Below, in pieces: positions 5,183-47,246 of a stretch of DNA of 64,000 nt. The notes below the pieces were generated by a model, which saw only the letters and a program-made list of their open reading frames with translations, made no database searches and was not told the origin of the DNA. The DNA is from Clostridia bacterium. GTDB taxonomy: Bacteria > Bacillota > Clostridia > Christensenellales > CAG-314. Every line of letters starts with the position of its first letter. Positions within the stretch are counted from its first letter, which is position 1. A program made the translations under genes and the position numbers. Where the stretch lies: assembly GCA_900769665.1 (NCBI GenBank), contig CAAGHL010000060.1:264-64263 (forward strand), read 5' to 3'.

Positions 5183-6115
5183 TTGAAACGGAATAACGTC
5201 GACAACCCGAAACGCAAAAAGATATTTCGCAGACGATTTTTCATCTTCTGCTTTTTGGCGTTTCCCGTTGTAAACTTCCTTATATTTTACGTGTACGTCA
5301 ACTTCGACGCCTTCTTCATGGCGTTTCAACGTCCCGTCACGGGGCAAGGTTTCGGCGCGACGGAGTGGAGCTTGGACAACTTCAAGACGATATTCAAACT
5401 GCTGAGTTTTTCCGAAGAGGGCGTGCTGTGGCAAGCGTTCCTCAACACGGTGCTGTTTTTCCTAGCAGGCATGCTTGTCGGACTTCCGCTGTCCATACTG
5501 ATGAGCTATTTTATATACAAAAAGATAAAAGGCTACAAGCTGTTTCGGTTCGTCACCTATTTGCCCAACATCATTACCAGCTCCGCACTGGTGATATTGT
5601 TCAAAAACGCCGTCGGTCCGGGCGGTCCGATAGACGCGATAATCACCAATCTCGGCGGCGAATACATCGATCCGCTAACCGTCAACGAAACGTCAATTTG
5701 GATGATAATTTTTTACTCCGTCAGTTTCGGTTTCGGCACAAACCTGATTGTGCTAAACGGCGCAATGAACGGCATAAATCAGGAAATGTTGGAAGCGGCA
5801 GAGATAGACGGTTGCAACTGGTTTAAGGAATTGATCTACATAATCATCCCCTCAGTGTGGCCTACGATAAGCACCATTGTGGTATTGGCAACGGCAGGTT
5901 TTCTCGGCGCAACGGGACCGATACTTGCGTTTACCAAGGGTACAAACGGCACAATGACGTTGGCGTTTTACATCTACCAACTTGTCAGTGGCGTAGGCAA
6001 CGGCGGACAGCAAGACGTTTACCTTGCCTCGGCAATCGGCGTAATCATGACGTTGATTTCCTTCCCGTTGGCGCTGTTGGTGCGCAAGCTTGTGTACGGC
6101 AAGGAGGAGGCGTAG
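5183..6115 (+). CDS. Sugar ABC transporter permease (CUT1, MalF/LplB-like)
   Basis: Multi-TM protein with an EAA-like loop (EAAEIDGCNWFKELIYIIIP). The start is uncertain: a TTG at 5183 lies 8 nt after GGAGG, an alternative ATG lies at 5168, and the ORF track starts at 5150. Confidence 0.88.
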   Translation: MKRNNVDNPKRKKIFRRRFFIFCFLAFPVVNFLIFYVYVNFDAFFMAFQRPVTGQGFGATEWSLDNFKTIFKLLSFSEEGVLWQAFLNTVLFFLAGMLVGLPLSILMSYFIYKKIKGYKLFRFVTYLPNIITSSALVILFKNAVGPGGPIDAIITNLGGEYIDPLTVNETSIWMIIFYSVSFGFGTNLIVLNGAMNGINQEMLEAAEIDGCNWFKELIYIIIPSVWPTISTIVVLATAGFLGATGPILAFTKGTNGTMTLAFYIYQLVSGVGNGGQQDVYLASAIGVIMTLISFPLALLVRKLVYGKEEA

Positions 6116-24843: not shown

Positions 24844-25962
24844 ATGAATATACAACCGGAAAGAACGGAGTACGACCATCACTTTGCACTTGCGCTGATT
24901 GCCATGGCGAGAGCCGATTGGATAGGCGCGCATGAGGAGTTGAGTCTTGCCGCCGACAGCTTGTACAAGTTTAGCGCACAGCAAAATTCCTTCGAGCAAA
25001 ACGTCACCAAGGGGTGGCTGTACGACATAATCCGAGAGTTGAAACGTATCGAATTGCACAACAACAACCAAGCCGCACGCGCCAAAATGGAAGCGCGCAT
25101 GCAGAAAAAAAGCGGCGGCACCGACAGCGGTATACAAGCCTGTACGCCGATGTGGAAGTTTGACGACATTGCAGGTTTGTCCGACGTCAAAGAAGAGGTA
25201 AACTACAACGTCGTATTGCCCGTCAAGTACCCCGATTTGTACAAATTGTTCCGTAAAAAGACCAACGGCGGCATACTGATGTACGGCTTGCCGGGTACGG
25301 GCAAAACAATGATTGCCGAAGCCATTGCCGGCGAAATCGGCGCAAAGTTTTTCCCCGTTAGATGCTCTGACCTTGGCAGTAAGTGGTTTGGCGAAACGGA
25401 ACAAAACATTAAAAAACTGTTTGAGGCGGCGCGGAAAGCCGACAAATCCGTGATATTTTTTGACGAGGTGGAAGCCTACGCCTCCAACCGTAGCGACGGC
25501 GAAACAATGGTGCGCGCCACAAACGAGCTGTTGTCGCAGTTGCAGGGCGCGTGCACCGAACAAATAAACAAAAACATACTTGTCATTGCCGCCACAAACA
25601 AACCGTGGGCATTGGACGGCGCATTTTGGCGACCCGGGCGGTTTGATGAAAAAATTTACGTGCCGTTGCCCGACAAAGCGGCTCGCAAACGTATCATGGA
25701 GCTATCCTTTGCCGAAGTGCCGAGCGAGGACATTGACCTTGGCGAATACGCCGAACGTTGCGAGGGCTTCAACGGCGCGGACGTCAAGTACTTGTGCGAA
25801 AAGGCAAAGGAAGCAGCAATCAAACGTGTGCTTGCCGACCAAGACTCCGCACGCAAACTACTGCGCAACGACTTGGAACAAGCAATGCGCATTGTCGGTA
25901 GCTCCGTCATTGTGCAAGACAAAACGCAAATGCAAAACTGGTGCGCGCGGCTCGGCGCATAG
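24844..25962 (+). CDS. Classical-clade AAA+ ATPase (Vps4/katanin/FtsH-like single AAA module) with a short helical N-domain
   Basis: Walker A GLPGTGKT, Walker B VIFFDEVE, SRH region ATNKPWALDGAFWRPGRFDEKIYVPLPD. An N-terminal region of about 100 aa is all-helical. Confidence 0.9.
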   Translation: MNIQPERTEYDHHFALALIAMARADWIGAHEELSLAADSLYKFSAQQNSFEQNVTKGWLYDIIRELKRIELHNNNQAARAKMEARMQKKSGGTDSGIQACTPMWKFDDIAGLSDVKEEVNYNVVLPVKYPDLYKLFRKKTNGGILMYGLPGTGKTMIAEAIAGEIGAKFFPVRCSDLGSKWFGETEQNIKKLFEAARKADKSVIFFDEVEAYASNRSDGETMVRATNELLSQLQGACTEQINKNILVIAATNKPWALDGAFWRPGRFDEKIYVPLPDKAARKRIMELSFAEVPSEDIDLGEYAERCEGFNGADVKYLCEKAKEAAIKRVLADQDSARKLLRNDLEQAMRIVGSSVIVQDKTQMQNWCARLGA

Positions 25963-26016
25963 GGCGTCGGCGGTGGCAAACACCTACACGCGCAACGCAA
26001 AACAAGAGAGGGTAAT

Positions 26017-27309
26017 ATGTATTTCAAGAAAAACGACAAATTCACATGCGACAACAATCAAACGTACGTTGTCGAGGACTTGCTCGGCGAGGGCGGACAA
26101 GGCGAGGTGTACCTTGTGTCAAACGGCGTGCAAAAGTATGCGCTTAAAATCTACAAAAAGCAGGAAACAAGCGACTTCAAGTACAACCTGCGCAACAACA
26201 TCGAAAACGGCAGTCCGTCGGCGGATTTTTTGTGGCCAAAGCGTTTGTATGAGTGCGACGACGGGCGCATAGGTTACTTTATGGATTTGCGCCCCAAAAA
26301 CTACGTGTCGTTTGTATCCTACCTTACGGGCAAAAACCAATTCAAAAACAAGGCAACGTTGCTAAAGTGGTGCGTTTCGCTGTGTTCGGCGTTCAAAAAG
26401 TTGCACGAGCAAGGGTTTTCCTACCAAGACCTCAACGACGGCAGTTTCTTCTTCGACCCCGACACGGGCGCATTGCTTATTTGCGACAACGATAACGTGA
26501 CCGCCGACAAAAAGAACCTCGGCATCCTTGGCAAAATGCGCTACATGGCGCCGGAAATCGTCACCGGCAAGTGCTTGCCCGACGTGCACTCGGATAGGTT
26601 TTCGTTGGCGGTGATACTGTTTATGGCGTTGTGCTTAGGCAATCCTTTCGAGGGAGAACGGCTGAAAGACTACGACATCGTGGATGAAAAAGCCGAGTAC
26701 GAGATGTTCGGTAGCGACCCCGTGTTTGTCTACCACAAGACGAGGAAAACCAACCGCCCCATACGCGGCTACCACTCCGCAGTGCTCAAACGTTGGGCGT
26801 ATTTGCCGATGTACGTCAAGGAAGCGTTCCATCGCACCTTTGTGGACGGACTTGTCGACCGTGAAAACGAACGCACCACCGAGATAGAGTGGCTGAAACT
26901 GCTGACCAAGTACAGGGACGAGCTGATTACCTGCCCTCACTGCGGCTATGAGTACGTATTGGGGTTGGAAGATAAAAAGCGGTACGACGTTTGCCCGTTG
27001 TGCGGCAAGCCTACAAAAGAAGTGTGTTTGCTGACGATCGGCAAGAGCAAAATAGCGTTGGAACCCGACAAATACTTGTACAAAAGCCATATAGACAAGT
27101 ACACGGACGACTACTCGACTGTTGTCGGAAAAGTAATACGTAACAAGAAAAACCCGACATTGTGGGGCATAAAACTTGCTCTCGGTAACGCCGTAGAGGT
27201 GGAAGACGCAAGCGGCGACAAACGTATTATTGCCGCCGACGGCGTGATACCCGTCGTGCGTAATCTAAAAATCAGGTTTGGTAGTAGTTTGGTCGGCGAA
27301 ATTAAGTAA
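26017..27309 (+). CDS. Ser/Thr protein kinase-like protein with C-terminal zinc ribbon and FHA-like beta domain (TerY-P-type kinase)
   Basis: Gly loop LGEGGQGEVY, YALKIY lysine, atypical catalytic loop YQDLNDGS, CDNDN in place of DFG, and YMAPEI. A CPHCG...CPLCG ribbon is followed by about 100 aa rich in beta strands. Confidence 0.85.
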   Translation: MYFKKNDKFTCDNNQTYVVEDLLGEGGQGEVYLVSNGVQKYALKIYKKQETSDFKYNLRNNIENGSPSADFLWPKRLYECDDGRIGYFMDLRPKNYVSFVSYLTGKNQFKNKATLLKWCVSLCSAFKKLHEQGFSYQDLNDGSFFFDPDTGALLICDNDNVTADKKNLGILGKMRYMAPEIVTGKCLPDVHSDRFSLAVILFMALCLGNPFEGERLKDYDIVDEKAEYEMFGSDPVFVYHKTRKTNRPIRGYHSAVLKRWAYLPMYVKEAFHRTFVDGLVDRENERTTEIEWLKLLTKYRDELITCPHCGYEYVLGLEDKKRYDVCPLCGKPTKEVCLLTIGKSKIALEPDKYLYKSHIDKYTDDYSTVVGKVIRNKKNPTLWGIKLALGNAVEVEDASGDKRIIAADGVIPVVRNLKIRFGSSLVGEIK

Positions 27310-27434
27310 CGTATTGCTTTTTTAGTGACATAAAGGGCTAATTCGATATGGATTTTGATGTAGATTGACAGCGGTTTTGCAACCGAAATTACACTACGAA
27401 AGTAGCAAAAAAATAACACGAGAGAGGTAGAAAC

Positions 27435-28163
27435 ATGGAAGACAGAGTGCTAGGCGACGGCATTGCCCGTCAGGAACTGAATTTGTTGTTTGTAATCGAC
27501 ATATCGGGATCGATGGACGGCGAAAAAATCGGTGCGGTAAACAACGCCATACGCGACGTAATGAGCATAATGCCCGAGATACAGGACGACACGTCGGACG
27601 CGGTGATAAAGATTTCGGCGTTGAAGTTTAGCGACAATGCGGAGTGGGTGTACCCCGAACCCAAGTCTATTGCCGACTTCAAGTGGAAGGACGTGACCGC
27701 CGAAACGGGTACGAACTTGTCGGCGGCGTTGGACGCAATGTCGGCGTGGTTGTGCAAACGTAGCAAGGGCGGACAAATGCCCGACATCGGCGGTATTGCG
27801 CCCATCATCATTTTGATGACCGACGGTATGCCGACAAGTTACGATTGGCAAGACCACTTGTTCAATCTAAAAAAGAAGGGTTGGTTTCGAGTGGCGTTGA
27901 AGTACGCCCTTGCCATCGGCGTGGAAGATCAAGAAGCCATGGACGTGCTGACGGCATTTACCGGCAACTCGGAAACGGTGCTGAAAGTGTACACGGCGGA
28001 AGCGTTGCGCAAGGTGATTAAGGTAATTGCCGTGACGGCATCCAAGGTCAAGTCCAACAGCGCATCCACAAGCGGCGTAGGCGGTGCGGTGGTGGACAAC
28101 AACCAAGTGGCGCAGGCGCAAATCGCCGACAAGTTGGAAGAGGTGACGGACGTTGAGTGGTAG
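27435..28163 (+). CDS. vWA-domain protein, TerY-like (copy 1)
   Basis: MIDAS motif VIDISGSM with downstream LMTDGMPT. Its size (242 aa) and C-terminal acidic tail (VTDVEW) are like TerY. Confidence 0.88.
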   Translation: MEDRVLGDGIARQELNLLFVIDISGSMDGEKIGAVNNAIRDVMSIMPEIQDDTSDAVIKISALKFSDNAEWVYPEPKSIADFKWKDVTAETGTNLSAALDAMSAWLCKRSKGGQMPDIGGIAPIIILMTDGMPTSYDWQDHLFNLKKKGWFRVALKYALAIGVEDQEAMDVLTAFTGNSETVLKVYTAEALRKVIKVIAVTASKVKSNSASTSGVGGAVVDNNQVAQAQIADKLEEVTDVEW

Positions 28164-28887
28164 CTTGCCTGCGGTTGTCGCTGACCGAATTGCAAAACAG
28201 CGACTAAACGTAATATTGGTTGTGGATTGCTCAACAAGCATGCGCGGCGAACGTATTGCGCAAGTCAATGCGGCGATACACGACATAAAACGCTACCTAA
28301 GCAAACTGCAAGGGGACAACTCCAACGTCGACTTTTACATCACTGTCATCACCTACTCCACCGACGCGTTTTTCCTCAATCGGGACAAATGCAAGGCAGT
28401 GGATGAATTTGAGTTTTTCGACATCAAGGCAGGCGGTTGGAGCAATCTGCACATCGCCTACAAACGCCTTTCCGAAATCTTGCGTAAGGAATCCAAGGGC
28501 GGACAAATGCCCGACTACGGCGGCGTTGCGCCAATTGTGTTGCTGATGACCGACGGACACCCCACCAAGGACAACGTCGAAGACCAGTTGAAGGCGTTGA
28601 AAAAGTTGCCTTGGTTTAACGTAGCGTTGCGCTACGGCATTGCAATCGAGCTAAACGACAAACGGACAATGAAGTGCCTCACCGATTTTGTCGGCGGCAA
28701 CGGTGACGTGGTGGAGTGCTACGACGCTCGACTGCTGGAACGTATCATCAAGGTGATTGTGTTGACGGCTTCCAAGGTCAAGTCGAGTTCCGCAAGCGTG
28801 CGCGCCGAGGGTGTGCCCGACGTGACGGAAGAGGTCCGGCAGGAAGTGCGACAAGCTATTTCCGAAGTGGATGATTGGGAGTGGTGA
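28153..28887 (+). CDS. vWA-domain protein, TerY-like (copy 2)
   Basis: The TTG start lies 6 nt after GGAAGAGGTGA and overlaps the copy 1 stop by 11 nt. MIDAS motif VVDCSTSM with LMTDGHPT. The tail EVDDWEW parallels that of copy 1. Confidence 0.85.
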   Translation: MSGSLPAVVADRIAKQRLNVILVVDCSTSMRGERIAQVNAAIHDIKRYLSKLQGDNSNVDFYITVITYSTDAFFLNRDKCKAVDEFEFFDIKAGGWSNLHIAYKRLSEILRKESKGGQMPDYGGVAPIVLLMTDGHPTKDNVEDQLKALKKLPWFNVALRYGIAIELNDKRTMKCLTDFVGGNGDVVECYDARLLERIIKVIVLTASKVKSSSASVRAEGVPDVTEEVRQEVRQAISEVDDWEW

Positions 28888-28888
28888 C

Positions 28889-29728
28889 ATGCTGAGATTT
28901 TTTACAAAGACGGCAATAGGGTACAACCATTTGCAACATGGCAAGCCTTGCCAAGACTTCTCCGCAAGCTATCACGACGAGGAACGCACCATTGTTACGG
29001 CATGCGACGGACACGGTAGTGAGGTGCATGTGCGTAGCGCCCTCGGTAGTAAATTTGCGGCGGAAGCGGTGATAAATGTATTCAAAAAAGTAACACGTAT
29101 GCTGTTTTTCCGCACAAAAACGGAAGAAGCAAACAAAAAATTGCGGTTGGAAATCTTGTGCGAATGGAATGCGCTTGTGGAACGTCACCTTGCTGAACAT
29201 CCGTTAAGCAAGGCGGAGCTGTCAACGCTGGACGAAGACAAGGTGTTTCGCTTGAAGACCGACCCGACGGTGGCGTACGGCACCACGTTGCAAGGCGCAA
29301 TGTTTTTCGGCAACAAGGTGGTGTGTGTTTCCTTGGGTGACGGCGGCTGTTTTGTAGTAAAGCGCGGTATGCTGTATCCGCTGTTCGAGGATGTCGAGGA
29401 AGAGGAAAACGTGGCAAACGTCACTTGCTCTATGTGCCAATCGGACGCATACAAACACTTGCATGTCGCCGTGTTTGATGCAAAAAGCGTGCAAGGCGTA
29501 ATAGTACTAACCGACGGACTGATAAACCCCTACCGCAACTTGGGCAACTTTGCCGAAAAGTTTGTTGCGCCCACTGTGACCAATTTGCTTGACGGTAATG
29601 CGGGCGTGGTGAATGAATTTATTACTAGGTTGGGTGCGGAATTGGGCATTGGCGACGACGTGTCGTTAGGCATTATTTTGCGAGATAACCGCACTTCTGC
29701 AAGCCGAGTCAGGGAGAAGCAAACATGA
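28889..29728 (+). CDS. PP2C-family Ser/Thr phosphatase (TerY-P-type)
   Basis: GYNHLQHGKPCQDF, ACDGHGS and VLTDGL metal-binding motifs. The start is the ATG at 28889, after GGGAGTGG; the ORF track allows 28871. Confidence 0.85.
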   Translation: MLRFFTKTAIGYNHLQHGKPCQDFSASYHDEERTIVTACDGHGSEVHVRSALGSKFAAEAVINVFKKVTRMLFFRTKTEEANKKLRLEILCEWNALVERHLAEHPLSKAELSTLDEDKVFRLKTDPTVAYGTTLQGAMFFGNKVVCVSLGDGGCFVVKRGMLYPLFEDVEEEENVANVTCSMCQSDAYKHLHVAVFDAKSVQGVIVLTDGLINPYRNLGNFAEKFVAPTVTNLLDGNAGVVNEFITRLGAELGIGDDVSLGIILRDNRTSASRVREKQT

Positions 29729-30804
29729 AGTTTCGCGAAGCATTGAAGTATTGTTTCGACAATCGCACGACGGACGACGACATTGTTGCGCCGTTTAGGC
29801 TGTATTGCAAGTTGTGCGACATGACGGACAGCGGATATGCAAACGCCAAGAAATTGCGTAACTTTTTTGCCGTGGACAAGAGGGTTGCATTGGTGGAAAG
29901 TATGGTGAAGGAAGGGGTTGCAAGCGTTGAACCATTGACGGAAAAGTATGCTCTCGTAAAGGATTTCCTGTCGCAAAAAAGTTACTACGTATTGGTTTTC
30001 CTTGTGCAAAACACGCTGTTTCCGCATTGGGACAACGATGTCGCCGAACTGAAAAACAAGCTTGTTCCGCAAAAAAAGGTTGCAGACAAACCGACGGCAA
30101 ACAATGTGGCGAAAAAGCCGACTGTAACCCGTGCGCCTACATCGGGCGGTAGCCAAAGTGGCAAAGGCAATCCCAACGGCTCGGGCAGTGGCGGTGCGGC
30201 AACGACGACAAATCAATCGACAACGCAAAGTCAATATGCAACAAGCCAAAACGCAACCACGCAATCGACAACAAGTCAAACAACATCGACCCCGACGTAC
30301 CGTTCCTCAACAAGCGGTGTGTCGTACGGCAGTTACTACCATGACTTTGCGGAAACAAACTTCGACGACGTCATTTTGCCGTTTAGGTTTGTATTTGTCT
30401 TTTTGTTGGCGGCGGTTGCCGTGGCTACGGGCATATGCGCAATATTCTTTGCCCAATATGGTTGGACGTATTGGCAGTGGGTTGTCGGCGCGGCAATTGC
30501 CGTTGTGTTGCCGTACTTGTTTTTCGAGGGCGAAAACCTGATTAACAGCATGTACGCAACCTTCCCTTTGGCGTTGGCTGTGTATGCATTTTGCATTTGT
30601 GGCGTGGTGCTCAATCACGTGTTTCGCAACGACTTTGCCTTGGTTGCCCATTGGCTGTACGGCGCAATGTTTGCAACAAGTTTTGTGGTTGCATTTGTGT
30701 ATGTAGGCGACAAGAAAAGGCGTGCGCACACAAGAATGTATCTCGTGGCGCTGTTGGTAAGCGCGGTGTTGTTCGTTGCGGAGTTTTTCGTGGATTTTGC
30801 GTAA
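29725..30804 (+). CDS. Polytopic membrane protein: N-terminal soluble domain, S/T/Q/G-rich low-complexity linker, C-terminal 4-5 TM helices
   Basis: ATGA overlap with the PP2C stop. The linker is GGSQSGKGNPNGSGSGGAATTTNQSTTQSQYATSQNATTQSTTSQTTSTPTYRSSTSG, followed by hydrophobic helices. Confidence 0.75.
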   Translation: MKFREALKYCFDNRTTDDDIVAPFRLYCKLCDMTDSGYANAKKLRNFFAVDKRVALVESMVKEGVASVEPLTEKYALVKDFLSQKSYYVLVFLVQNTLFPHWDNDVAELKNKLVPQKKVADKPTANNVAKKPTVTRAPTSGGSQSGKGNPNGSGSGGAATTTNQSTTQSQYATSQNATTQSTTSQTTSTPTYRSSTSGVSYGSYYHDFAETNFDDVILPFRFVFVFLLAAVAVATGICAIFFAQYGWTYWQWVVGAAIAVVLPYLFFEGENLINSMYATFPLALAVYAFCICGVVLNHVFRNDFALVAHWLYGAMFATSFVVAFVYVGDKKRRAHTRMYLVALLVSAVLFVAEFFVDFA

Positions 30805-32113: not shown

Positions 32114-32303
32114 ACACATACTTGGTTTTGTAGTCTATTGTATATATTATTAGCAAACCAATGTTGTTAGAGGGATTGAAAATGATTGTCTTGTATGGCA
32201 AACTAGATATGTAGTGTCGCGGGACGGGCAGTAGCCCGGCTCCGTTTTCGCATACCTTTTTGCTGTCGCAATCGTCGTGCGCATTGCGCTTTTGAGGAGA
32301 ATT

Positions 32304-33260
32304 ATGAACAAAACGGCAAATTGCCTAAAAATGTTGCAGTATCTCAACTCCGGCAGAGTGTACAAAATCAGCGAACTCGCCGAGCGGTTGGAAACAAACC
32401 CACGCAACATCATCGAATACCGCAACGAGTTGGAAAACGCCGGCTACGTCATCATCAGCATAGCAGGAAAGTACGGTGGCTACAAGTTGGACGAAACTTC
32501 CACGTTGCCCACGGTCAAGCTCACTGCGGATGAGAAGCTCGCCCTTGTAGAAGGTGCGGGCTATTTGGCTGCCCGAAACGACTTTTTGTACAAGGCGCAG
32601 TACGAGTCGGCAATGAGCAAGGTGTATTCGGCGGTCAACCACACGGACAATCGCGAGGTATTGCCCACGGTGATTACGCGCTTCCCCCTTGCCATGAGTG
32701 AGGAAGAAATCTCCCGTCGCTACAATGCGGTGCAACGATGTATTTACGGACGTCTGAAACTGAAAATCACCTACCTTTCCGCCAAAAACGAGCAATCGCA
32801 ACGCACAATCCACCCCTACAATTTGTATATGTACAACAATGCGTGGTTTGTCATTGCGTTTGACGAGTTGCGCGGCGAGGTAAAGTACTTCAAGCTAAAC
32901 CGCATAAAGGCGTTAGAAGTGCGTGACGGCGAGCGGTTTAGGCGGTTGCTTTCGTACAAGGCAAGCGACTACGTGGACCGCTTCGGCATGAAAAACAACG
33001 GCGAGTGGTACGAGTTTGAGCTGGAACTGACCGGCAAGTACGCAATGTTGGTGCAGGAGCGCATTTATGGGCGCGACCAAGTGGTGACACCGATCGATGC
33101 GGAGCGCACGCGACTGAAAGTGACCATGCAAAACAAAACCGACGTCGTGTCCTTCGTGATGGGCTTCGGCAAGTATTGCAAAGTGCTTGAACCGGAGTGG
33201 TTGAAAGAGGAAGTTGCCGAAAGTTGTAAACTGATTTTGGATGGACTGAATAGTGGGTGA
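32304..33260 (+). CDS. HTH-WYL transcriptional regulator (YafY/CapW/BrxR-like architecture)
   Basis: N-terminal wHTH (LKMLQYLNSGRVYKISELAERLETNPRNIIEYRNELENAGYVI). Central WYL-like block (IHPYNLYMYNNAWFVIAFDE). C-terminal WCX-like extension. GAGGAG RBS before 32304. Confidence 0.85.
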   Translation: MNKTANCLKMLQYLNSGRVYKISELAERLETNPRNIIEYRNELENAGYVIISIAGKYGGYKLDETSTLPTVKLTADEKLALVEGAGYLAARNDFLYKAQYESAMSKVYSAVNHTDNREVLPTVITRFPLAMSEEEISRRYNAVQRCIYGRLKLKITYLSAKNEQSQRTIHPYNLYMYNNAWFVIAFDELRGEVKYFKLNRIKALEVRDGERFRRLLSYKASDYVDRFGMKNNGEWYEFELELTGKYAMLVQERIYGRDQVVTPIDAERTRLKVTMQNKTDVVSFVMGFGKYCKVLEPEWLKEEVAESCKLILDGLNSG

Positions 33261-40619: not shown

Positions 40620-40722
40620 TGATGTGGGCGAAAGGAACGGTTGGTTTAGCGTTTGAAGCATATTTTTAGCCTAAATCCGCTAAAAAAGTGCAAAAAAATG
40701 TAAAAAAAATTCAAAATGGGTA

Positions 40723-40751
40723 TTGACATTCGGTAATACGGGTGTTATACT
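40723..40751 (+). promoter_or_regulatory. Near-consensus sigma-A promoter with extended -10
   Basis: TTGACA (40723-40728), a 17-nt spacer ending TGT, then TATACT (40746-40751). The predicted TSS coincides with the first P1 nucleotide of the riboswitch. Confidence 0.75.
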
Positions 40752-40757
40752 AGTCAT

Positions 40758-40825
40758 GGTTTATATAGGTTTGGAAAAATGGTAACAAACGTTTCTACCA
40801 ACTACCTCACAGTTGACTATAGACC
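40758..40825 (+). promoter_or_regulatory. Purine riboswitch aptamer, guanine/hypoxanthine class (C at the specificity position)
   Basis: P1 GGUUUAUA/UAUAGACC. J1-2 UAG. P2 GUUUG..CAAAC with an L2 ending AUGG. J2-3 GUUUCUAC, identical to B. subtilis xpt. P3 CAACU/AGUUG with L3 ACCUCAC. A-C precedes the P1 3' strand. Confidence 0.8.
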
Positions 40826-40878
40826 CCCTCCATGCCTTAGTTGATTTCATACCGAATCAAACTCCATAAAAAAGGAAG

Positions 40879-40909
40879 AACCGACGCTCCATCCGTCGGT
40901 TTTTCTTTT
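40879..40909 (+). terminator. Intrinsic terminator (riboswitch expression platform)
   Basis: AACCGACG-CUCCAUC-CGUCGGUU hairpin followed by UUUUCUUUU. Confidence 0.8.
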
Positions 40910-41068
40910 GCCTCGGGTTGCCCTTTGCCGCCCCATGGGAAATGCCCTTTTGCGACACCGACGTTAGTAAAATTAGCGGCAGTAGAAGTGCAAACCCCAC
41001 TCGCTGGTATACTTCGGCGCGCTTTTGCACAAAATCTACAAAAAATATTCAATATGCCACCAAAAAGC

Positions 41069-41097
41069 TTGACAAATATTTTGCGAAGGCGTATCAT
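41069..41097 (+). promoter_or_regulatory. Sigma-A promoter of tRNA-fMet
   Basis: TTGACA (41069-41074), a 17-nt spacer, then TATCAT (41092-41097). It lies about 38 nt upstream of the tRNA 5' end. Confidence 0.7.
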
Positions 41098-41134
41098 ATA
41101 TTAGCACTGTGAGAGCGGTGCGCATATTTTATAT

Positions 41135-41211
41135 CGCGGGGTAGAGCAGTCTGGTAGCTCATCGGGCTCATAACCCGAAGGTCGTTGGTTCAAATCCTTC
41201 CCCCGCAACCA
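41135..41211 (+). tRNA. Initiator tRNA-fMet (anticodon CAT), CCA-encoded
   Basis: 77 nt. The 5' CGCGGGG paired with a 3' CCCCGCAACCA end gives the C1:A72 mismatch. Three G:C pairs (GGG/CCC) flank the CUCAUAA anticodon loop. T-arm GGTTCAAATCC. The sequence is close to the E. coli initiator as I recall it. Confidence 0.95.
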
Positions 41212-41217
41212 TTAAAG

Positions 41218-41242
41218 AAGCAGTCTTCGGACTGCTTTTTTT
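41218..41242 (+). terminator. Intrinsic terminator after tRNA-fMet
   Basis: AAGCAGTC-TTCG-GACTGCTT hairpin followed by a T-run. Confidence 0.85.
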
Positions 41243-41340
41243 ATATCTATTCGGGTTATGCTTTGCCGCAAGGCAAAGGTTGCTCCTGAGCAACAGCCCG
41301 ATCGGGCTCCTAGTTGAGCCTTGGCGAAACCAACGTAGTT

Positions 41341-41384
41341 ATAACCCGAAGGTCGTTGGTTCAAATCCTTCCCCCGCAACCATT
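41341..41384 (+). repeat. 44-bp exact duplicate of the tRNA-fMet 3' half (att-like direct repeat / truncated pseudo-tRNA)
   Basis: ATAACCCGAAGGTCGTTGGTTCAAATCCTTCCCCCGCAACCATT is identical to 41170-41213. No matching 5' acceptor or D-arm lies upstream. Confidence 0.9.
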
Positions 41385-41415
41385 CGCGCGGCTCGTTAGG
41401 AGTCGCAAAAATAAG

Positions 41416-41742: not shown

Positions 41743-42453
41743 ATGAGAAATATTGCCATAGTAGAGGACGACAAAAATTCTTCCAAACTCCTTAGCGAGT
41801 ATTTGGATAAATTTTCAAAAGATCACGATTGCAAATTTACGACTTCGACTTTTTTTACTGCCGGTGACTACATCGAAAACTGTCGTTCAGGTTTCGATAT
41901 TGTCTTTATGGACATCGAATTACCTGACGGCAACGGCATGGAATCTGTCCGTCGCATACGTGAATTAGGCGTGGAATCGCTTGTGATTTTCGTGACTAAC
42001 CTTGCCAAGTATGCTGTTCAGGGCTACGAGGTTAAAGCTTTTGACTTTATCGTCAAACCTGTCAATTACTACAATTTCGAGCTGAAACTTTTAAGCGCAT
42101 TGGAGTGTCTCGACAAAAACGGCGACAAGGAGTTTTGGGTAAAAACAAAAGAAGGAAAAGTGATTTTGCGTGGTTCCGATATTACTTACGTTGAAGTTTT
42201 GCGGCACTATTTGACCTATCATACAAAAAACGGAGATTATTCCGTATTAGGATCAATCGGCGAAGCTGCGGAACTTTTGAAGGAATGTAGATCTTTTGTC
42301 TTTTGTAATAGGTGTTACTTGGTTAATCTCCGTTATGTTACGCAGATTAAAAAGTCGACTGTGACCGTAGCGGGGCAGGAGTTGCAAATTTCCAGACAAA
42401 AGAGAGCAAATTTTTTGAAAGAACTCAACGATTACTTCGGCGGAGGAAAATAG
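41743..42453 (+). CDS. LytR/AlgR-family response regulator (REC + LytTR DNA-binding domain)
   Basis: REC motifs (IAIVEDD, DIVFMDIELPDGNG, FVTNLAKYA) and a C-terminal LytTR-like region (ITYVEV...CNRCYLVNLRYV). Confidence 0.9.
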   Translation: MRNIAIVEDDKNSSKLLSEYLDKFSKDHDCKFTTSTFFTAGDYIENCRSGFDIVFMDIELPDGNGMESVRRIRELGVESLVIFVTNLAKYAVQGYEVKAFDFIVKPVNYYNFELKLLSALECLDKNGDKEFWVKTKEGKVILRGSDITYVEVLRHYLTYHTKNGDYSVLGSIGEAAELLKECRSFVFCNRCYLVNLRYVTQIKKSTVTVAGQELQISRQKRANFLKELNDYFGGGK

Positions 42454-42454
42454 T

Positions 42455-43789
42455 ATGTTTTCCAATCTACTTTTTATCATCGAAATATTTATCTGCGGAC
42501 ATTTGTTTGCATTTAGATTAAAACATCGAAACAAGTACGCATTGCGTCTTGTTTCCAGTGCGGCGGTTTGTATCGGCGTAGGTGCTTTTCTCGGACTTTT
42601 CTTTGTCGAAAACGTTTTTTACTCGTTTTTTGTTTATATGGCACTTTTTGCCGTGTCGATACTTGCGCTGTGGTTTACTTACGACGAGCCGATAGTTAAT
42701 ATCTTTTTTTGTGGCATTGCGGCGTATACGACTCAACACTTCGCTTACCAATTTGCAAACCTTGTGTTTACACTCGTTATGACAGGGGCAAGTCCTTTGC
42801 TGGGTATTTACCACATTAAGTTTTTCGATATTACCAAGTTGAACGCCAACTTTTTGCTTGTTGCGTCGATTTACGTAATGTGTTACTTTACGATTTACGG
42901 ATTAGTCTACATTATCTTTGGCAGGCGTATCGAAAAACAAGGCGGATTGGAGATAAAAAACAAAAATATTTTGGTGTTGTTGGGCTTTTGCCTTATTCTA
43001 AACATTGTATTAAACTCCGTCATGCTGTATCTTGGTGACCATTTGCCCTTTGTCAACTCGGTGATTTTTTACATATACATCTGTTTGTGTTGTTTTTTGT
43101 TGTTACAGTGGCAATTCGAGCTTAGTTACTCCAAGAGTTTAAGCACGGAGCTCGATTTTGTAAAAAAACTGCTTCAACAGGAAAAAGAACACTACAAATT
43201 GTTTCGCGACAACATACAAATCATCGACATCAAATGTCACGACATGAAACACCAAATTCGTCAAATCGGTATAAACAAGGGTTTGGACAGTGAAACGGTG
43301 GAAGAAATTGAAAAGTCGATTTCCATATACGATTCGGATGTAAAAACCGACAATGAAGCTCTTGACGTGATTCTTGCCGAAAAAAGTCTTAAATGTATAA
43401 AGTATAACATCACTTTCAGTTGTATGGCGGATGGAAAAAGGCTGAATTTCATGAAAGACTCCGACGTATATTCTCTGTTCGGCAATGCGCTAGATAATGC
43501 AATCGAAGCGGTAGTAAAGCTCAAAGACAAATCGCAAAGAGTAATCGGTCTTAAAGTATGCGCAGTAGGGGACATGACGTCGATAAACGTGAAAAACTTT
43601 TACGACGGAAAAATCGAGTTCAACAAGGAGGGTATTCCCGATTCGACCAAACTCGACAAGAGCTTTCACGGATTCGGACTAAAAAGTATAGCCATGATTG
43701 TGGAAAAGTACGGCGGTTCGTTGTCTATCGTGGCGCATGACGAAATATTCAACCTAAATATACTTTTGCCCGGTCAAACGTCAAAATGA
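42455..43789 (+). CDS. AgrC-like (HPK10) GHKL sensor histidine kinase with a 6-7 TM sensor domain
   Basis: Polytopic N-terminal half. H-box region IKCHDMKHQIRQI. N-box LFGNALDNAIEA. G-box GFGLKSIAMIVEKYGG. The start lies 1 nt after the response regulator stop. Confidence 0.88.
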   Translation: MFSNLLFIIEIFICGHLFAFRLKHRNKYALRLVSSAAVCIGVGAFLGLFFVENVFYSFFVYMALFAVSILALWFTYDEPIVNIFFCGIAAYTTQHFAYQFANLVFTLVMTGASPLLGIYHIKFFDITKLNANFLLVASIYVMCYFTIYGLVYIIFGRRIEKQGGLEIKNKNILVLLGFCLILNIVLNSVMLYLGDHLPFVNSVIFYIYICLCCFLLLQWQFELSYSKSLSTELDFVKKLLQQEKEHYKLFRDNIQIIDIKCHDMKHQIRQIGINKGLDSETVEEIEKSISIYDSDVKTDNEALDVILAEKSLKCIKYNITFSCMADGKRLNFMKDSDVYSLFGNALDNAIEAVVKLKDKSQRVIGLKVCAVGDMTSINVKNFYDGKIEFNKEGIPDSTKLDKSFHGFGLKSIAMIVEKYGGSLSIVAHDEIFNLNILLPGQTSK

Positions 43790-43915
43790 TTACGAAAATT
43801 GTACGAAACAATACCACTGGGGCATAATTTGATACGTAACGTGCAAACGCTATTGACAGCGATTGCACGTTTTTTTATACTTAGCTTGCATGCAAAACAA
43901 CTTGGAGGTGACTCG

Positions 43916-44194
43916 ATGGAAAACGAAGAAAAGGCAAATATTCGCAAATCATGGAGGTTGCCGTGGGGCATATTCGCGGCGGTAATTGCAATGATTTGGT
44001 CGTTTGTGACGATAGGTATAATTGCAGGGGTTGTGATGGTAACGACGGGCTTCGGAAAGACGTATTCCATAACAAACGGCTTGTTCGACACGGGCTGGCT
44101 GATAGCTTTGTACGTGGCGGAAGTAGTACTTATTGCAGGCTTTGTAGCGTGTATTATTTTGCGTTGCAAACAAGCAAAAGAGAAACAGGAGTAA
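43916..44194 (+). CDS. Small membrane protein (92 aa, 2 TM)
   Basis: GGAGGTG RBS and two long hydrophobic helices. I recognise no family. Confidence 0.6.
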   Translation: MENEEKANIRKSWRLPWGIFAAVIAMIWSFVTIGIIAGVVMVTTGFGKTYSITNGLFDTGWLIALYVAEVVLIAGFVACIILRCKQAKEKQE

Positions 44195-44201
44195 GAAACA
44201 A

Positions 44202-47200
44202 ATGAAAATTTTTAAAAGATCCGTTTGGGCATGTCTTACCGTGTACCTTGCGATATGGCTGTGTATAGCCATTACCGCGGGAGTAGTGCTTAGCGGTTAC
44301 AGAAAAACCATCAATAATACCTTGGGACTGCGCGGTTACACAACGGTCAACAAGGAAAACAGCGGTGATGAGGATTTGGAATACTACAAATCCGCTTACG
44401 TCAAGAAGGACAGCAACGGCAATCCCTTGACTGTTACCGATGCTAACGGTTACAAACATCAGGTTTACGACGACAAAGCGTTGCGTCAAGCCAATATAGA
44501 AAAAGCCGACGCCGTGCAAAGGGAAGGCGCTACATTGCTTTGGAACAACGATGTCGACGGCAATATCGGCTTACCTCTTGCCGATGGCAACAAGGTAAGT
44601 TTGTTCAGCCATTCCAGCGTCGACTACGCACATACTGCCTCGGTGACATCCTCCGGCAAGGCTTATCTCGGCGGAGTAAGCAATCTCAAACAAGCATCCG
44701 AAAACGCCGGTTTGACGGTAAACCCCACGTTGTGGGATTTCTACAATACGGGCGACGGAAGCTCTTATGTACGTACGGATTTTTCCAAGGTGAACGAGGT
44801 TCCTTGGAACCGCTACACAGATATGGTCAAGCGTAGTTTCTCCAACTACGGCGATGCTGCTGTGGTGGTCATCAGTCGTGTTTGCGGCGAAAGCGGTGCA
44901 ACCGACGCTACGCAACTGTATGCGGACACGATCTCCAAGGACTACTTCGACTTTTCGCAAGAAGAACACGATATGTTTGCCAATATTCTCAAATATAAAG
45001 CAGACGGCGTGTTTAAGAAAGTAATCGTATTACTTAATACCCCCACGGGATTTAACTTCGACGCATTCAAAAACTACCGTGACAAAATCGACAGCTGTAT
45101 TTGGGTTGGTCAAGGCGGTTGGGAAGGCATCAACGAAGTCGGCAGAATTCTCGCCGGAAAGTCAATCCCGAGCGGACACTTGATGGACACCTACGCATAC
45201 AACGGACAATCGGCACCTGCCGCAGTCAATAGTATATTCCAATCCTACGAAAACCTGCGCAAAATGAAGTTGAAGGACATCAACTTCCAAGGAACCTACC
45301 TTGTTTATGCGGAAAACATTTACGTAGGCTACAAATATTACGAAACTCGCTACGAGGACGCCGTACTCGGACAAGGCAACGCAACATCCACAAAAGGAAC
45401 GGTCAATTCGACTGACGGGTGGGTGTACGGCGAAGAAGTTGCATTCCCGTTCGGTTACGGTGCGGCATATACTACGTTTGCTTATGAAAACTTCTCTGCC
45501 AAAAAACAATCCGACGGCAGTTGGAAAGTTACGCTTACCGTAAGAAATACAGGTGGCGTTGCCGGACAAGACGCAGTACAAGTGTACGTGCAAAAGCCCT
45601 ATACCGATTACGACAAACAATACGGTTTGGAGCAAGCTTCCGTAAACTTGTGCGGATATGCCAAAACAGGTATGATCGCTCCCGGCGATACGGAAAAGGT
45701 GGAAATTACCGTTTCTGCTGACTCGTTCCGCACGTATGACGACGAAAAACAAAAGACTTACATCTTTGAAAAGGGTACCTACTACATCACGGCGGCACAA
45801 GACGCGCACGAAGCGGTAAACAATATCCTTGCCGCCAAGGGCAAAACTCCTGCCAATACCGACGGGGTAATGGATGCGGAAGGCAATCAAAAGTTGGTCG
45901 AATCGTTTGTGAACTCGGCAAATGACTTTGAAAAGTACTCTAAGTCGGCAAACGGCACAAAGATAACCAACCAATTCGAAACCACCGACTGGAACAAGTA
46001 TCCCAACAGAAACGAAGGTGAAACGGTAGTGTATTTGTCCAGAAACGATTGGGAAAGCACATATCCTACAAAAAAACAATTCCGTTTCACTTTGACTAAC
46101 GCAATGGTGGAGGAACTCGGCGGAAACAATACAACCAGCGAGTGGAACCACACCGTCGAAGTTAAGCCCGGAGACGAAATGCCGACGTACGGCGCAACAA
46201 ACGACTTGAAGTTTGTCGATATGAAGGGACTTTCCTACGATGATCCTGCTTGGAACGATTTGTTGGACAAAATGACGTTGTTGGAACAATCCACGCTGTG
46301 CGCGACGGCGTTTTGGGGTACTGCGGCGATAGAAAGCATCAGCAAACCCGAAGATAAAACTGCCGACGGACCGATGGGCATACGTTACAAAATGACGTCA
46401 AGCGACACCCGCACGATGTCGTTCCCCGCCAACAGTTTGCTTGCCGCAACGTTTAACGACAAATTGGCTTACGACGTTGCTGCCGGTATGGGCGAAGATA
46501 TGTTGCATTCCGACTGTGAAAGTATGTACGGTACTGCGCCTAACCTTCACCGCTCGTTGTACGGCGGTAGAGCGTTTGAGTACTATTCCGAGGACGGTTT
46601 CCTGTCCGGTATGATGTGTAATCAACAAACGAAGGGCATGCAAGATAAAGGCGTATACGTAGTTATCAAGCACCTTGCCTTAAACGATCAGGAAACAAAC
46701 CGTCACGGTGTAGGTATTTGGGCAAACGAACAATCCATACGTGAAGTGTATCTCGAAGCATTTCGTCCTTCCGTAGAAGACGGCAACGCTCGTTCGATGA
46801 TGTCGTCGTTCACTCGTTTCGGCACTGTGTGGAGCGGTGCTTACGGCAATCTGAACAATCAGGTGCTTCGCGGCGAGTGGGGCTTTGACGGATATGTAAT
46901 CAGCGACTGCAGTTGGCGTGCTTACATGGGTATTATCGACGGACTTATGGGCGGAAACGATTGTATTTTGATGGAATTGGCTGCCGATTCGTACGTGCCG
47001 TATGCCGAAAACAATGCAACCGTCGCACTCGCCTTGCGTGAGGCAGTACACAGAATCTTGTATGTTACCGTCAATACGAGTGCGGTAAACGGCATCGGTT
47101 CCAATACGGAAATCGTACAAGTAAAGACTTGGTGGGAAAATGCGCTCGATATCTTCCTTACCGTCACGATTGTCCTTACGTCTTGCTCCGCAGCTATGCT

Positions 47201-47246
47201 CGTGACGTCCATAGTGATACACGCAAAGGGCAAGAAAAACAGTTAA
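44202..47246 (+). CDS. GH3 glycoside hydrolase (beta-glucosidase/xylosidase type) with N- and C-terminal TM helices and permuted-looking domain order
   Basis: PFGYGAAYTTFAYENFS (GH3 C-terminal/Fn3-like junction) lies upstream of the catalytic-domain motifs KHLALNDQETNR and GFDGYVISDC (nucleophile Asp). Hydrophobic helices occur at both termini. Confidence 0.82.
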   Translation: MKIFKRSVWACLTVYLAIWLCIAITAGVVLSGYRKTINNTLGLRGYTTVNKENSGDEDLEYYKSAYVKKDSNGNPLTVTDANGYKHQVYDDKALRQANIEKADAVQREGATLLWNNDVDGNIGLPLADGNKVSLFSHSSVDYAHTASVTSSGKAYLGGVSNLKQASENAGLTVNPTLWDFYNTGDGSSYVRTDFSKVNEVPWNRYTDMVKRSFSNYGDAAVVVISRVCGESGATDATQLYADTISKDYFDFSQEEHDMFANILKYKADGVFKKVIVLLNTPTGFNFDAFKNYRDKIDSCIWVGQGGWEGINEVGRILAGKSIPSGHLMDTYAYNGQSAPAAVNSIFQSYENLRKMKLKDINFQGTYLVYAENIYVGYKYYETRYEDAVLGQGNATSTKGTVNSTDGWVYGEEVAFPFGYGAAYTTFAYENFSAKKQSDGSWKVTLTVRNTGGVAGQDAVQVYVQKPYTDYDKQYGLEQASVNLCGYAKTGMIAPGDTEKVEITVSADSFRTYDDEKQKTYIFEKGTYYITAAQDAHEAVNNILAAKGKTPANTDGVMDAEGNQKLVESFVNSANDFEKYSKSANGTKITNQFETTDWNKYPNRNEGETVVYLSRNDWESTYPTKKQFRFTLTNAMVEELGGNNTTSEWNHTVEVKPGDEMPTYGATNDLKFVDMKGLSYDDPAWNDLLDKMTLLEQSTLCATAFWGTAAIESISKPEDKTADGPMGIRYKMTSSDTRTMSFPANSLLAATFNDKLAYDVAAGMGEDMLHSDCESMYGTAPNLHRSLYGGRAFEYYSEDGFLSGMMCNQQTKGMQDKGVYVVIKHLALNDQETNRHGVGIWANEQSIREVYLEAFRPSVEDGNARSMMSSFTRFGTVWSGAYGNLNNQVLRGEWGFDGYVISDCSWRAYMGIIDGLMGGNDCILMELAADSYVPYAENNATVALALREAVHRILYVTVNTSAVNGIGSNTEIVQVKTWWENALDIFLTVTIVLTSCSAAMLVTSIVIHAKGKKNS

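Follow-up and report, generated by a model that had tools for sequence, protein, structure and literature searches.

A guanine-class purine aptamer joined to a conserved RNA tail in a probable small RNA gene of gut Clostridia

A 64,000-nucleotide (nt) stretch of a Clostridia bacterium contig (CAAGHL010000060.1; hereafter the window, within which all positions are counted) contains, at 40723-40909, a promoter, a 5′ purine-riboswitch aptamer of 68 nt and a 3′ domain of 84 nt that includes a terminator. The guanine-type aptamer and the conserved RNA tail to which it is fused probably form an independent RNA gene of about 150 nt, present in at least four species of gut Clostridia. That the element is a selected, stand-alone non-coding RNA gene is, in our judgement, very likely. 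It is neither a riboswitch stripped of its cargo gene nor a controller of the tRNA-fMet gene that follows it in the window. We also lean, with less assurance, towards the whole statement that it is a stand-alone purine-aptamer small RNA (sRNA) gene that acts in trans and is tuned by purine. The features are as follows.

40683..40751, + strand: promoter, comprising an A-tract UP-element-like region, a -35 box, a 17-nt spacer and an extended -10 box.
40758..40909, + strand: predicted mature small RNA of about 150 nt, with start and end inferred from the sequence.
40758..40825, + strand: guanine-class purine aptamer, recognized by its Rfam RF00167 score and three-way junction.
40826..40833, + strand: motif 1, CCCUCCAU, directly 3′ of P1 and anti-Shine-Dalgarno-like.
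40841..40860, + strand: small hairpin 2, UUGAUU-UCAUACCG-AAUCAA, whose sequence is kept better than its fold.
40861..40867, + strand: motif 2, ACUCCAU, a single-stranded linker ahead of an A-run.
40871..40909, + strand: intrinsic terminator, in which an A-run plus purine arm pairs with a pyrimidine arm plus U-tract.
41135-41211, + strand: tRNA-Met(CAT), the next functional element 3′ of the RNA.

Promoter and aptamer

The promoter core consists of a -35 box TTGACA (40723-28), a 17-nt spacer and an extended -10 box TGtTATACT (40743-51), and matches the consensus at 11 of 12 positions, with the TG of the extended -10 present. The UP-element-like A-tract region (40683-40715) lies upstream of the -35 box. 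The start site is placed at G40758, 7 nt past the -10 box, so that transcription would begin at or beside the first base of P1, and the 3′ end is placed in the U-tract. The promoter appears to be strong and of the housekeeping type, probably has a G start, and resembles the promoters of stable RNAs; one may speculate that such a start could add sensitivity to GTP pools. The -35 box, TGnTATACT and the upstream GCAAAAAA/A-tracts are kept in three further species (L011, L096 and L130, introduced below), with a variable spacer. A first-pass annotation of the window had described a near-consensus promoter firing into the aptamer, three CUCCAU copies, a terminator and no open reading frame (ORF) behind them, and each of these was found where it had been placed.

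The Rfam family RF00167 (Purine) matches the + strand at 40741-40839 with 39.1 bits, above the gathering score of 37 (E = 0.008 for the whole window, E = 5.5e-05 for 40700-41140 alone), which bears out the earlier call of a guanine-class purine-riboswitch aptamer. The corresponding scores are 41.1 bits in L002, a second contig of the window species, and 49.5-51.4 bits in L011, L096 and L130. Helix P1 (40758-65/40818-25) delimits the 68-nt aptamer and is followed by J1/2, which reads UAG. P2 is formed by 40769-73 and 40786-90, with the GG of L2 at 40781-82, and J2/3 is the unaltered 8-nt GUUUCUAC at 40791-98. A short P3 (40799-803/40811-15) carries the L3 loop ACCUCAC, with CC at 40805-06, and J3/1 is A-C, with C40817 at the specificity position (position 74). 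The ligand-contacting nucleotides, namely U40766 in J1/2, 40791-98 and C40817, are invariant in all homologues. By published criteria the pocket is canonical: the J1/2 U, J2/3 and C74, where U74 would denote adenine (PMC9295807, PMC11477304). The L2 GG and the L3 CC are likewise conserved. P3 and L3 together span 17 nt, compared with 21 in the Rfam consensus (four alignment gaps), and some of the loop-loop contacts may be missing as judged from this length.

Across the four-species family, 98.9% of cells in the aptamer helices are paired, versus 30-46% when the partner strand is slid. P1 shows three wobble-compatible changes within the family. The sixth P2 pair is U-A in L096, A-U in L011 and a G.A mismatch in the window, which helps to explain why the window copy has the lowest score. 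Because the aptamer helices are nearly invariant, support for the fold comes from the Rfam model and not from covariation within this small family. On every sequence criterion examined the aptamer is of the guanine class; ligand binding is a prediction, in view of the short L3/P3, the P2 mismatch and the score of 39 bits.

Conservation and genomic context of the unit

One genome per GTDB species was scanned for purine aptamers that share the unusual spacing of the window copy, with 7-8 nt between the L2 GG and J2/3 and a P3/L3 shortened to 14-16 nt. At least 120 loci fitted and, among the matches listed, three beyond the window species carry the whole element. The four loci and their neighbours are as follows.

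Window: upstream, MACPF and metallo-beta-lactamase-fold proteins; downstream, tRNA-fMet and then a LytTR two-component system.
L011, a Clostridia metagenome-assembled genome (MAG) from roe deer, whole element: upstream, GH13; downstream, nrdD, 740 nt off, behind conserved NrdR-box-like palindromes.
L096, an Oscillospiraceae MAG, whole element: upstream, CotH; downstream, a convergent gene.
L130, an unclassified MAG, whole element: upstream, tRNA-Pro on the other strand; downstream, convergent RimK-like genes.

Common to the four species are the A-tract region, the -35 box, TGnTATACT, a transcript start at AUGG/GG of P1, the aptamer, CCCUCCAU, UUGAUUUCAUACCGAAUCAA, ACUCCAU, the A-run and the terminator loop CUCCA(U). 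Pairwise identity of the RNA is 78-86%, whereas the 200-nt flanks on each side are 51-64% identical, against 60% for shuffled sequence. Neutral DNA has thus diverged to saturation while the RNA was kept. Judged from the alignment, the 3′ domain is under clear purifying selection. Within the window species, contigs L001, L002 and L131 carry the RNA almost unchanged, with one P1 U-G replaced by U-A.

Searches for further copies returned little. A metagenome scan with an element-specific pattern yielded a single contig, L131, from the window species; a scan of viral contigs for the element gave no matches, and a search of a phage database gave tRNA matches only. An nhmmer search with the 3′ domain alone found no extra or aptamer-less copies in about 0.9 Mb of sequence.

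The element has no cis cargo gene, and none was lost recently. The first-pass annotation had called the riboswitch an orphan, and this description holds: no ORF preceded by a ribosome-binding site (RBS) was found 3′ of the element in the window, the ORFs overlapping the region have no Pfam match, and in none of the four species is the element followed by an operon. With 109 typical riboswitch cargo proteins as queries, tblastn detected no gene remnant behind the element in the four species (best E = 0.13). No coding frame is conserved on either strand across the four species. An antisense ORF of 29 amino acids (MKSTKAWRGSIVNCEVVGRNVCYHFSKPI, MKSTKAW..., 40757-40846, minus strand) was considered as a gene and rejected: L096 preserves its frame, but L130 has a frameshift and L011 no start codon. 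A GGAG lies 11 nt ahead of its ATG, and the complement of the conserved sRNA stretch thereby resembles a translation-initiation region (GGAG-N11-AUG-AAA), which may hint at the kind of target.

The comparison of synteny that the earlier annotation had called for agrees in that no cargo gene follows the homologues in the three other species; it points to no common partner gene, since the neighbours differ in each. An abundant related species that shares the GH13-nrdD synteny of L011 lacks the element at that site, and in the L096 MAG nrdD lies on another contig, where the sRNA is absent. When synteny was followed through the response regulator downstream in the window, relatives at 60-81% identity had neither the sRNA nor the tRNA upstream of it. 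Conservation of the cargo-less unit in unrelated contexts points to an independent sRNA gene rather than a decayed switch. Two palindromic boxes (CATACTATATCTTGTG ... ACCACAATATATTGTGTTT) were seen upstream of nrdD in L011 (2950-3060) and L138 (2860-2960); they are NrdR-operator-like and kept in both species, and the remainder of the GH13-nrdD spacer is unalignable.

A contrast set was formed by the 117 other short-P3 purine aptamers among the matches listed, a scope that applies to the counts in this paragraph. An RBS-preceded ORF of at least 80 amino acids starts within 600 nt of 109 of the 117, and six of the remaining eight are located no more than 400 nt from where the retrieved sequence ends. 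About half of the cargo genes are xpt-like; those sampled encode a phosphoribosyltransferase, a Bmp/PnrA-type binding protein, a xanthine/uracil permease, PurE, a FAD-dependent protein and an amidohydrolase. CTCCA occurs at most once within 140 nt in each of the 117, compared with two to three copies in the four sRNA-type loci. Clostridia, Bacilli and Treponema all hold such short-P3/L3 aptamers (L012-L129; 14-16 nt from J2/3 to GACUAU), many with a GCCAAUAUA...GACUAUUGG P1. The genes that follow them include those of xpt-like phosphoribosyltransferases, Bmp lipoproteins and permeases, as well as purE and a gene for a COG2509-like FAD-dependent protein, which is not a classical purine gene.

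The 3′ domain, its proposed action and alternative explanations

The 3′ domain displays the hexamer CUCCAU three times, and the terminator follows the aptamer, as the earlier annotation had reported. CTCCAT occurs at 40828, 40862 and 40887, and the whole window holds 15 copies on both strands; from that number, about 0.005 occurrences of three copies within 65 nt would be expected by chance window-wide. Motif 1, CCCUCCAU, is invariant in all four species and has an unpaired probability of 0.90-0.98 with the aptamer folded, as calculated from the partition function. Motif 2 is kept in the four species (with the variant ACUCCU in L011) and is unpaired with a probability of 0.57-0.73. Motif 3, CUCCAU (40887-92), occupies the terminator loop and is unpaired at 0.88-1.0. 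Hairpin 2, between motifs 1 and 2, has a low stability of -3.7 to -5.0 kcal/mol, and in L096 and L011 some of its pairs are disrupted. The conserved 23-nt stretch of the 3′ domain is UUUCAUACCGAAUCAAACUCCAU; the weak, partly broken fold combined with the conserved sequence points to a sequence-level role for this stretch.

The terminator arms (40871-86 and 40894-909) are 88% complementary, with a folding energy of -20 kcal/mol, and are followed by UUUUUCUUUU. Across the four species the energy ranges from -18.5 to -20.9 kcal/mol, and the stems are fully paired in each even as their sequences differ, while the loop CUCCA is invariant. The tops of the stems are CCGACG/CGUCGG, GGC/GCC, GGUU/AACC and GGC/GCC; a G in the purine arm and a C in the pyrimidine arm co-vary, that is, the changes are compensatory. 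The hairpin is also terminator-like on the minus strand. De novo folding of the four species with RNAalifold recovered P1, P2 and P3, the small hairpin and the terminator. In an Rfam search of 40700-41140 at E up to 10, the only matches besides Purine were below threshold and lay mostly over the terminator hairpin; no Rfam family covers the 3′ domain.

A conserved domain of 46-55 nt sets the terminator off from P1. No hairpin with a U-tract was found in 40826-40870, i.e., aptamer and effector are not separated by an internal terminator. By inspection, no antiterminator was found, and nothing upstream is complementary to, or co-varies with, the terminator top. Terminator pairing in the sRNA was unchanged whether P1 was enforced or forbidden, and most canonical xpt-type controls behaved likewise, so that this test does not discriminate. 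The apparent uncoupling of the terminator from the aptamer is consequently based on inspection, because the equilibrium test failed on the controls.

Firmicute sRNAs of the RsaE/RoxS type carry C-rich motifs (UCCC/CCCC) in loops, often in several copies, and target Shine-Dalgarno sequences. The present element has its own promoter and terminator, is non-coding, and holds three CUCCA copies that are unpaired at 0.57-1.0, as would be expected of a base-pairing sRNA. Since CUCC is the anti-Shine-Dalgarno core and its copies lie in loops and linkers as in those Firmicute sRNAs, we propose that the RNA acts in trans at ribosome-binding sites. In the mechanism envisaged, transcription from the strong promoter would begin at or near P1, and the 5′ 68 nt would fold as the guanine-class aptamer. 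The 3′ 84 nt would serve as an effector domain exposing CUCCA(U) three times, beside P1, in the linker and in the terminator loop, and the strong terminator, apparently uncoupled from the aptamer, would end the RNA. The anti-Shine-Dalgarno-like motifs would then pair in trans with (AU)GGAG ribosome-binding sites, with repression or, occasionally, activation of the mRNA as the outcome. Purine occupancy could tune this activity in two ways: a stabilized P1 at the AU-rich 5′ end may protect the RNA from 5′-end-dependent decay, or ligand binding may free motif 1, which adjoins P1. The effect of the ligand is the weakest link of the scheme.

Shine-Dalgarno pairing with ligand gating is thus put forward tentatively as the specific mechanism. 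With similar reservation, the element might be a natural allosteric riboregulator, in which purine binding switches the activity or lifetime of a trans-acting sRNA, with repression or activation of distant mRNAs as the result. A single RNA gene, needing neither a cis target nor a ligand-controlled terminator, would in that case combine metabolite sensing with trans regulation. The first-pass annotation had come closest with one of its three hypotheses, that of a terminated RNA of about 150 nt acting in trans. The putative trans-acting RNA is retained here, as a dedicated gene conserved in at least four species and not a by-product of cis control. The ligand-dependent termination that it also assumed is not, as no antiterminator is evident and the terminator top varies without a matching change upstream.

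Several observations weigh against an RNA that is purine-tuned and acts in trans. Motifs 2 and 3 are accessible with or without a folded aptamer, and motif 1 is gated in two of the four species (the window and L011, not L096 and L130). General ligand gating of the seeds by accessibility was accordingly rejected, as only motif 1 changes and only in those two. Double compensatory changes are absent from the aptamer helices of this family, L3/P3 is 4 nt below the Rfam consensus, and the window copy, with its mismatch in P2, reaches only 39 bits. Within the 64-kb window, no site complementary to the conserved stretch was found, and the duplex scores of translation-start regions equal the background. 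CUCC pairs with almost any strong Shine-Dalgarno sequence, which would weaken target specificity. Finally, few species are known to carry the element, at least four in number.

A different function for the exposed motifs would be that of a sponge or buffer, an RNA that titrates either the purine ligand or a protein recognizing the three CUCCAU (YCAY-like) motifs. We consider this unlikely, and equally so the version in which the aptamer sets when the protein sites are presented. A ligand-sink role has reportedly been proposed for a massively expressed orphan riboswitch RNA for cyclic di-GMP (c-di-GMP) in Bdellovibrio. The strong UP-element-like promoter suggests a high copy number, and one short motif repeated three times in loop or single-stranded settings is a layout typical of protein-titrating RNAs. 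Rli55/EutX provides a precedent for a riboswitch-linked sRNA that sequesters a protein (PMC5449094), and an orphan c-di-GMP riboswitch is on record for C. difficile (PMC11477304). Against these points, none of the four species encodes a candidate binding protein beside the element, the conserved 3′ domain would be superfluous in a pure ligand sink, and the exact anti-Shine-Dalgarno core CUCC favours RNA-RNA pairing.

It is also improbable that the aptamer fold was kept as a 5′ structural module, for 5′-end protection or as a scaffold, after its response to ligand had been lost. Such a module would account for the shortened P3/L3, the window P2 mismatch and the marginal Rfam score, for the lack of any alternative pairing that joins aptamer to terminator, and for the accessibility of motifs 2 and 3 in both aptamer states. 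However, the ligand-contact and junction nucleotides and the L2 GG and L3 CC of the predicted kiss are invariant in four species despite randomized flanks, and a mere cap would not require them. The same short-P3 build, moreover, precedes ordinary purine genes in more than 100 species among the matches listed, which indicates a functional build.

The two remaining hypotheses of the first-pass annotation are both highly improbable. One held that the element is a decayed cis riboswitch whose purine gene was lost by rearrangement at the tRNA integration site. Past integration nearby is indeed indicated by a 44-nt tRNA repeat (41170-41213, 41341-41384), and upstream gene content varies between strains (L001 versus L002). 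Yet the cargo-less unit with its 3′ domain, which is under purifying selection, recurs in three other species, in unrelated surroundings and away from any adjacent tRNA-fMet; tblastn found no remnant of a cargo, and the repeats, which resemble attachment (att) sites, sit 3′ of the tRNA and not between switch and tRNA. The other held that ligand-dependent read-through adds purine-responsive transcription to the downstream gene, tRNA-fMet in the window or nrdD in L011. In its favour, the tRNA lies 225 nt from the RNA in the same orientation, and the next co-oriented gene in L011, nrdD, is one of nucleotide metabolism. The arrangement is nevertheless not conserved: adjacency to tRNA-fMet is restricted to the window species among the four, no tRNA lies within 8 kb in L011 or L096, L130 has within that distance only the upstream tRNA-Pro on the other strand, and the downstream genes of L096 and L130 are convergent. 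The terminator (-20 kcal/mol with a long U-tract and no evident antiterminator) is strong, and tRNA-fMet has its own near-consensus promoter (TTGACA-17-TATCAT at 41069-41097, about 160 nt past the RNA terminator). Likewise, nrdD has its own control region with NrdR-box-like palindromes, and a related species with the same GH13-nrdD synteny does without the element.

Relation to known systems and genomic surroundings

Riboswitches are defined by cis control of an adjacent gene. The element shares with the Guanine-I riboswitch (xpt-pbuX, RF00167) the three-way junction, U22, U47/U51 in J2/3, C74 and the GG and CC that would form the L2-L3 kiss. Unlike that riboswitch, it has neither a downstream purine gene nor an expression platform overlapping P1, and in both respects it falls short of a complete cis-acting purine riboswitch. 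Its terminator lies 46-55 nt off, behind the effector domain, its P3/L3 is 4 nt shorter, and it constitutes a separate gene, whose promoter is positioned for a start at P1.

The closest parallels are found among riboswitch-associated sRNAs. Rli55 of Listeria and EutX of Enterococcus are sRNAs controlled by B12 riboswitches (PMC5449094). As in these RNAs, a stand-alone non-coding RNA here begins with the aptamer, and the regulatory activity (proposed, in our case) lies in the 3′ part. In Rli55/EutX, by contrast, a ligand-controlled premature terminator decides on the synthesis of an ANTAR-like protein-binding effector (PMC5449094), whereas the present element has no such terminator between aptamer and effector, belongs to the purine ligand class, and has an effector that resembles base-pairing seeds. 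SreA and SreB are transcripts of S-adenosylmethionine (SAM) riboswitches that act in trans on prfA (PMC5449094), and a similar dual-function SAM-I RNA is described for Desulfovibrio (bioRxiv 10.1101/803072). A short riboswitch RNA that pairs with the 5′ untranslated region or Shine-Dalgarno sequence of a distant mRNA is what we propose for the element as well. SreA/SreB are, however, terminated leaders of real operons that work both in cis and in trans, while the element does not derive from the leader of a cis-controlled operon and has a dedicated 3′ domain.

With sRNAs of the RsaE/RoxS type the element has in common several short, C-rich, Shine-Dalgarno-complementary motifs in loops or unpaired stretches, including a terminator-proximal loop. 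It differs from them in that no homology is seen (no Rfam match to RsaE or another sRNA at E up to 10), in that the motif is CUCCAU rather than CCCC, and in that those sRNAs have no metabolite aptamer. An orphan c-di-GMP-I riboswitch that controls no gene lies between CD2517 and CD2517.1 of C. difficile (PMC11477304). It likewise represents a known aptamer class without a gene to control, but is an observation from a single genome, whereas here the orphan state and the added effector domain are conserved across species. No description of a purine-aptamer sRNA was found in Rfam or in the full-text literature searched, and absence from these sources is not proof. Among the riboswitch-associated sRNAs, the description that suits the element best is that of a conserved, free-standing purine-aptamer sRNA.

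The few known exceptions to cis control are either by-products of cis switches (SreA/SreB) or cases in which the ligand decides on transcription of the effector (Rli55/EutX). If the proposed reading is true, the element would represent a third design, in which the ligand acts on a finished trans-acting RNA. It would be a natural counterpart to engineered aptamer-sRNA devices and would open a new route from purine pools to the translation of distant genes in abundant, uncultured gut anaerobes. In annotation, Rfam Purine matches that lack a downstream gene should not be discarded as pseudo-switches.

In the window, the tRNA that follows the element shows initiator hallmarks when read from its sequence: a C1xA72 mismatch, three G-C pairs in the anticodon stem and A11:U24. 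The 44-nt repeat mentioned above is an exact direct repeat of the 3′ half of tRNA-fMet, with copies 171 nt apart. In L002 the repeat lies at 5210-5253 and 5381-5424, with a third partial copy near 5611-5640, and the downstream segment is duplicated. These tRNA 3′-half repeats resemble att-site scars, such as repeated integration and excision at the tRNA 3′ end would leave. The spacers behind the sRNA terminator and behind the tRNA terminator (40900-40931 and 41238-41269) share a 32-nt stretch of 72% identity (TTTTT..TCGGGTT..CTTTGCCGC), and a 12-nt inverted repeat (40948-40959, 41399-41410) joins the two; both may be due to chance or be the trace of a local duplication.

Upstream, the segment 33613-40619 has a GC content of 40-44%, compared with about 50% elsewhere, and is a strain-variable island that ends just before the sRNA. 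It encodes a secreted-type protein of 1557 amino acids with MACPF/perforin, Big_3, GLUG and Listeria-Bacteroides repeat domains, followed by a metallo-beta-lactamase-fold protein of 778-804 amino acids. In L002 (1-4657), GH38, DUF6259 and other genes replace both, and at most about 600 nt of the end of the metallo-beta-lactamase gene are kept within an ORF of 241 amino acids. Further upstream, 24844-30804 encodes an AAA+ ATPase, a Ser/Thr protein kinase, two VWA-domain proteins, a PP2C phosphatase and a protein of 359 amino acids. A WYL/WCX-domain regulator (32277-33260) follows this kinase/phosphatase cluster, in a layout reminiscent of conflict- or defence-type signalling modules. On the other side of the tRNA, 41743-47246 encodes a LytTR response regulator, a GHKL histidine kinase, a protein of 92 amino acids and a GH3 glycosidase of 1014 amino acids. 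This LytTR-GH3 block is kept in the relatives L132 and L135 at 60-72% identity and may sense a peptide or a glycan.

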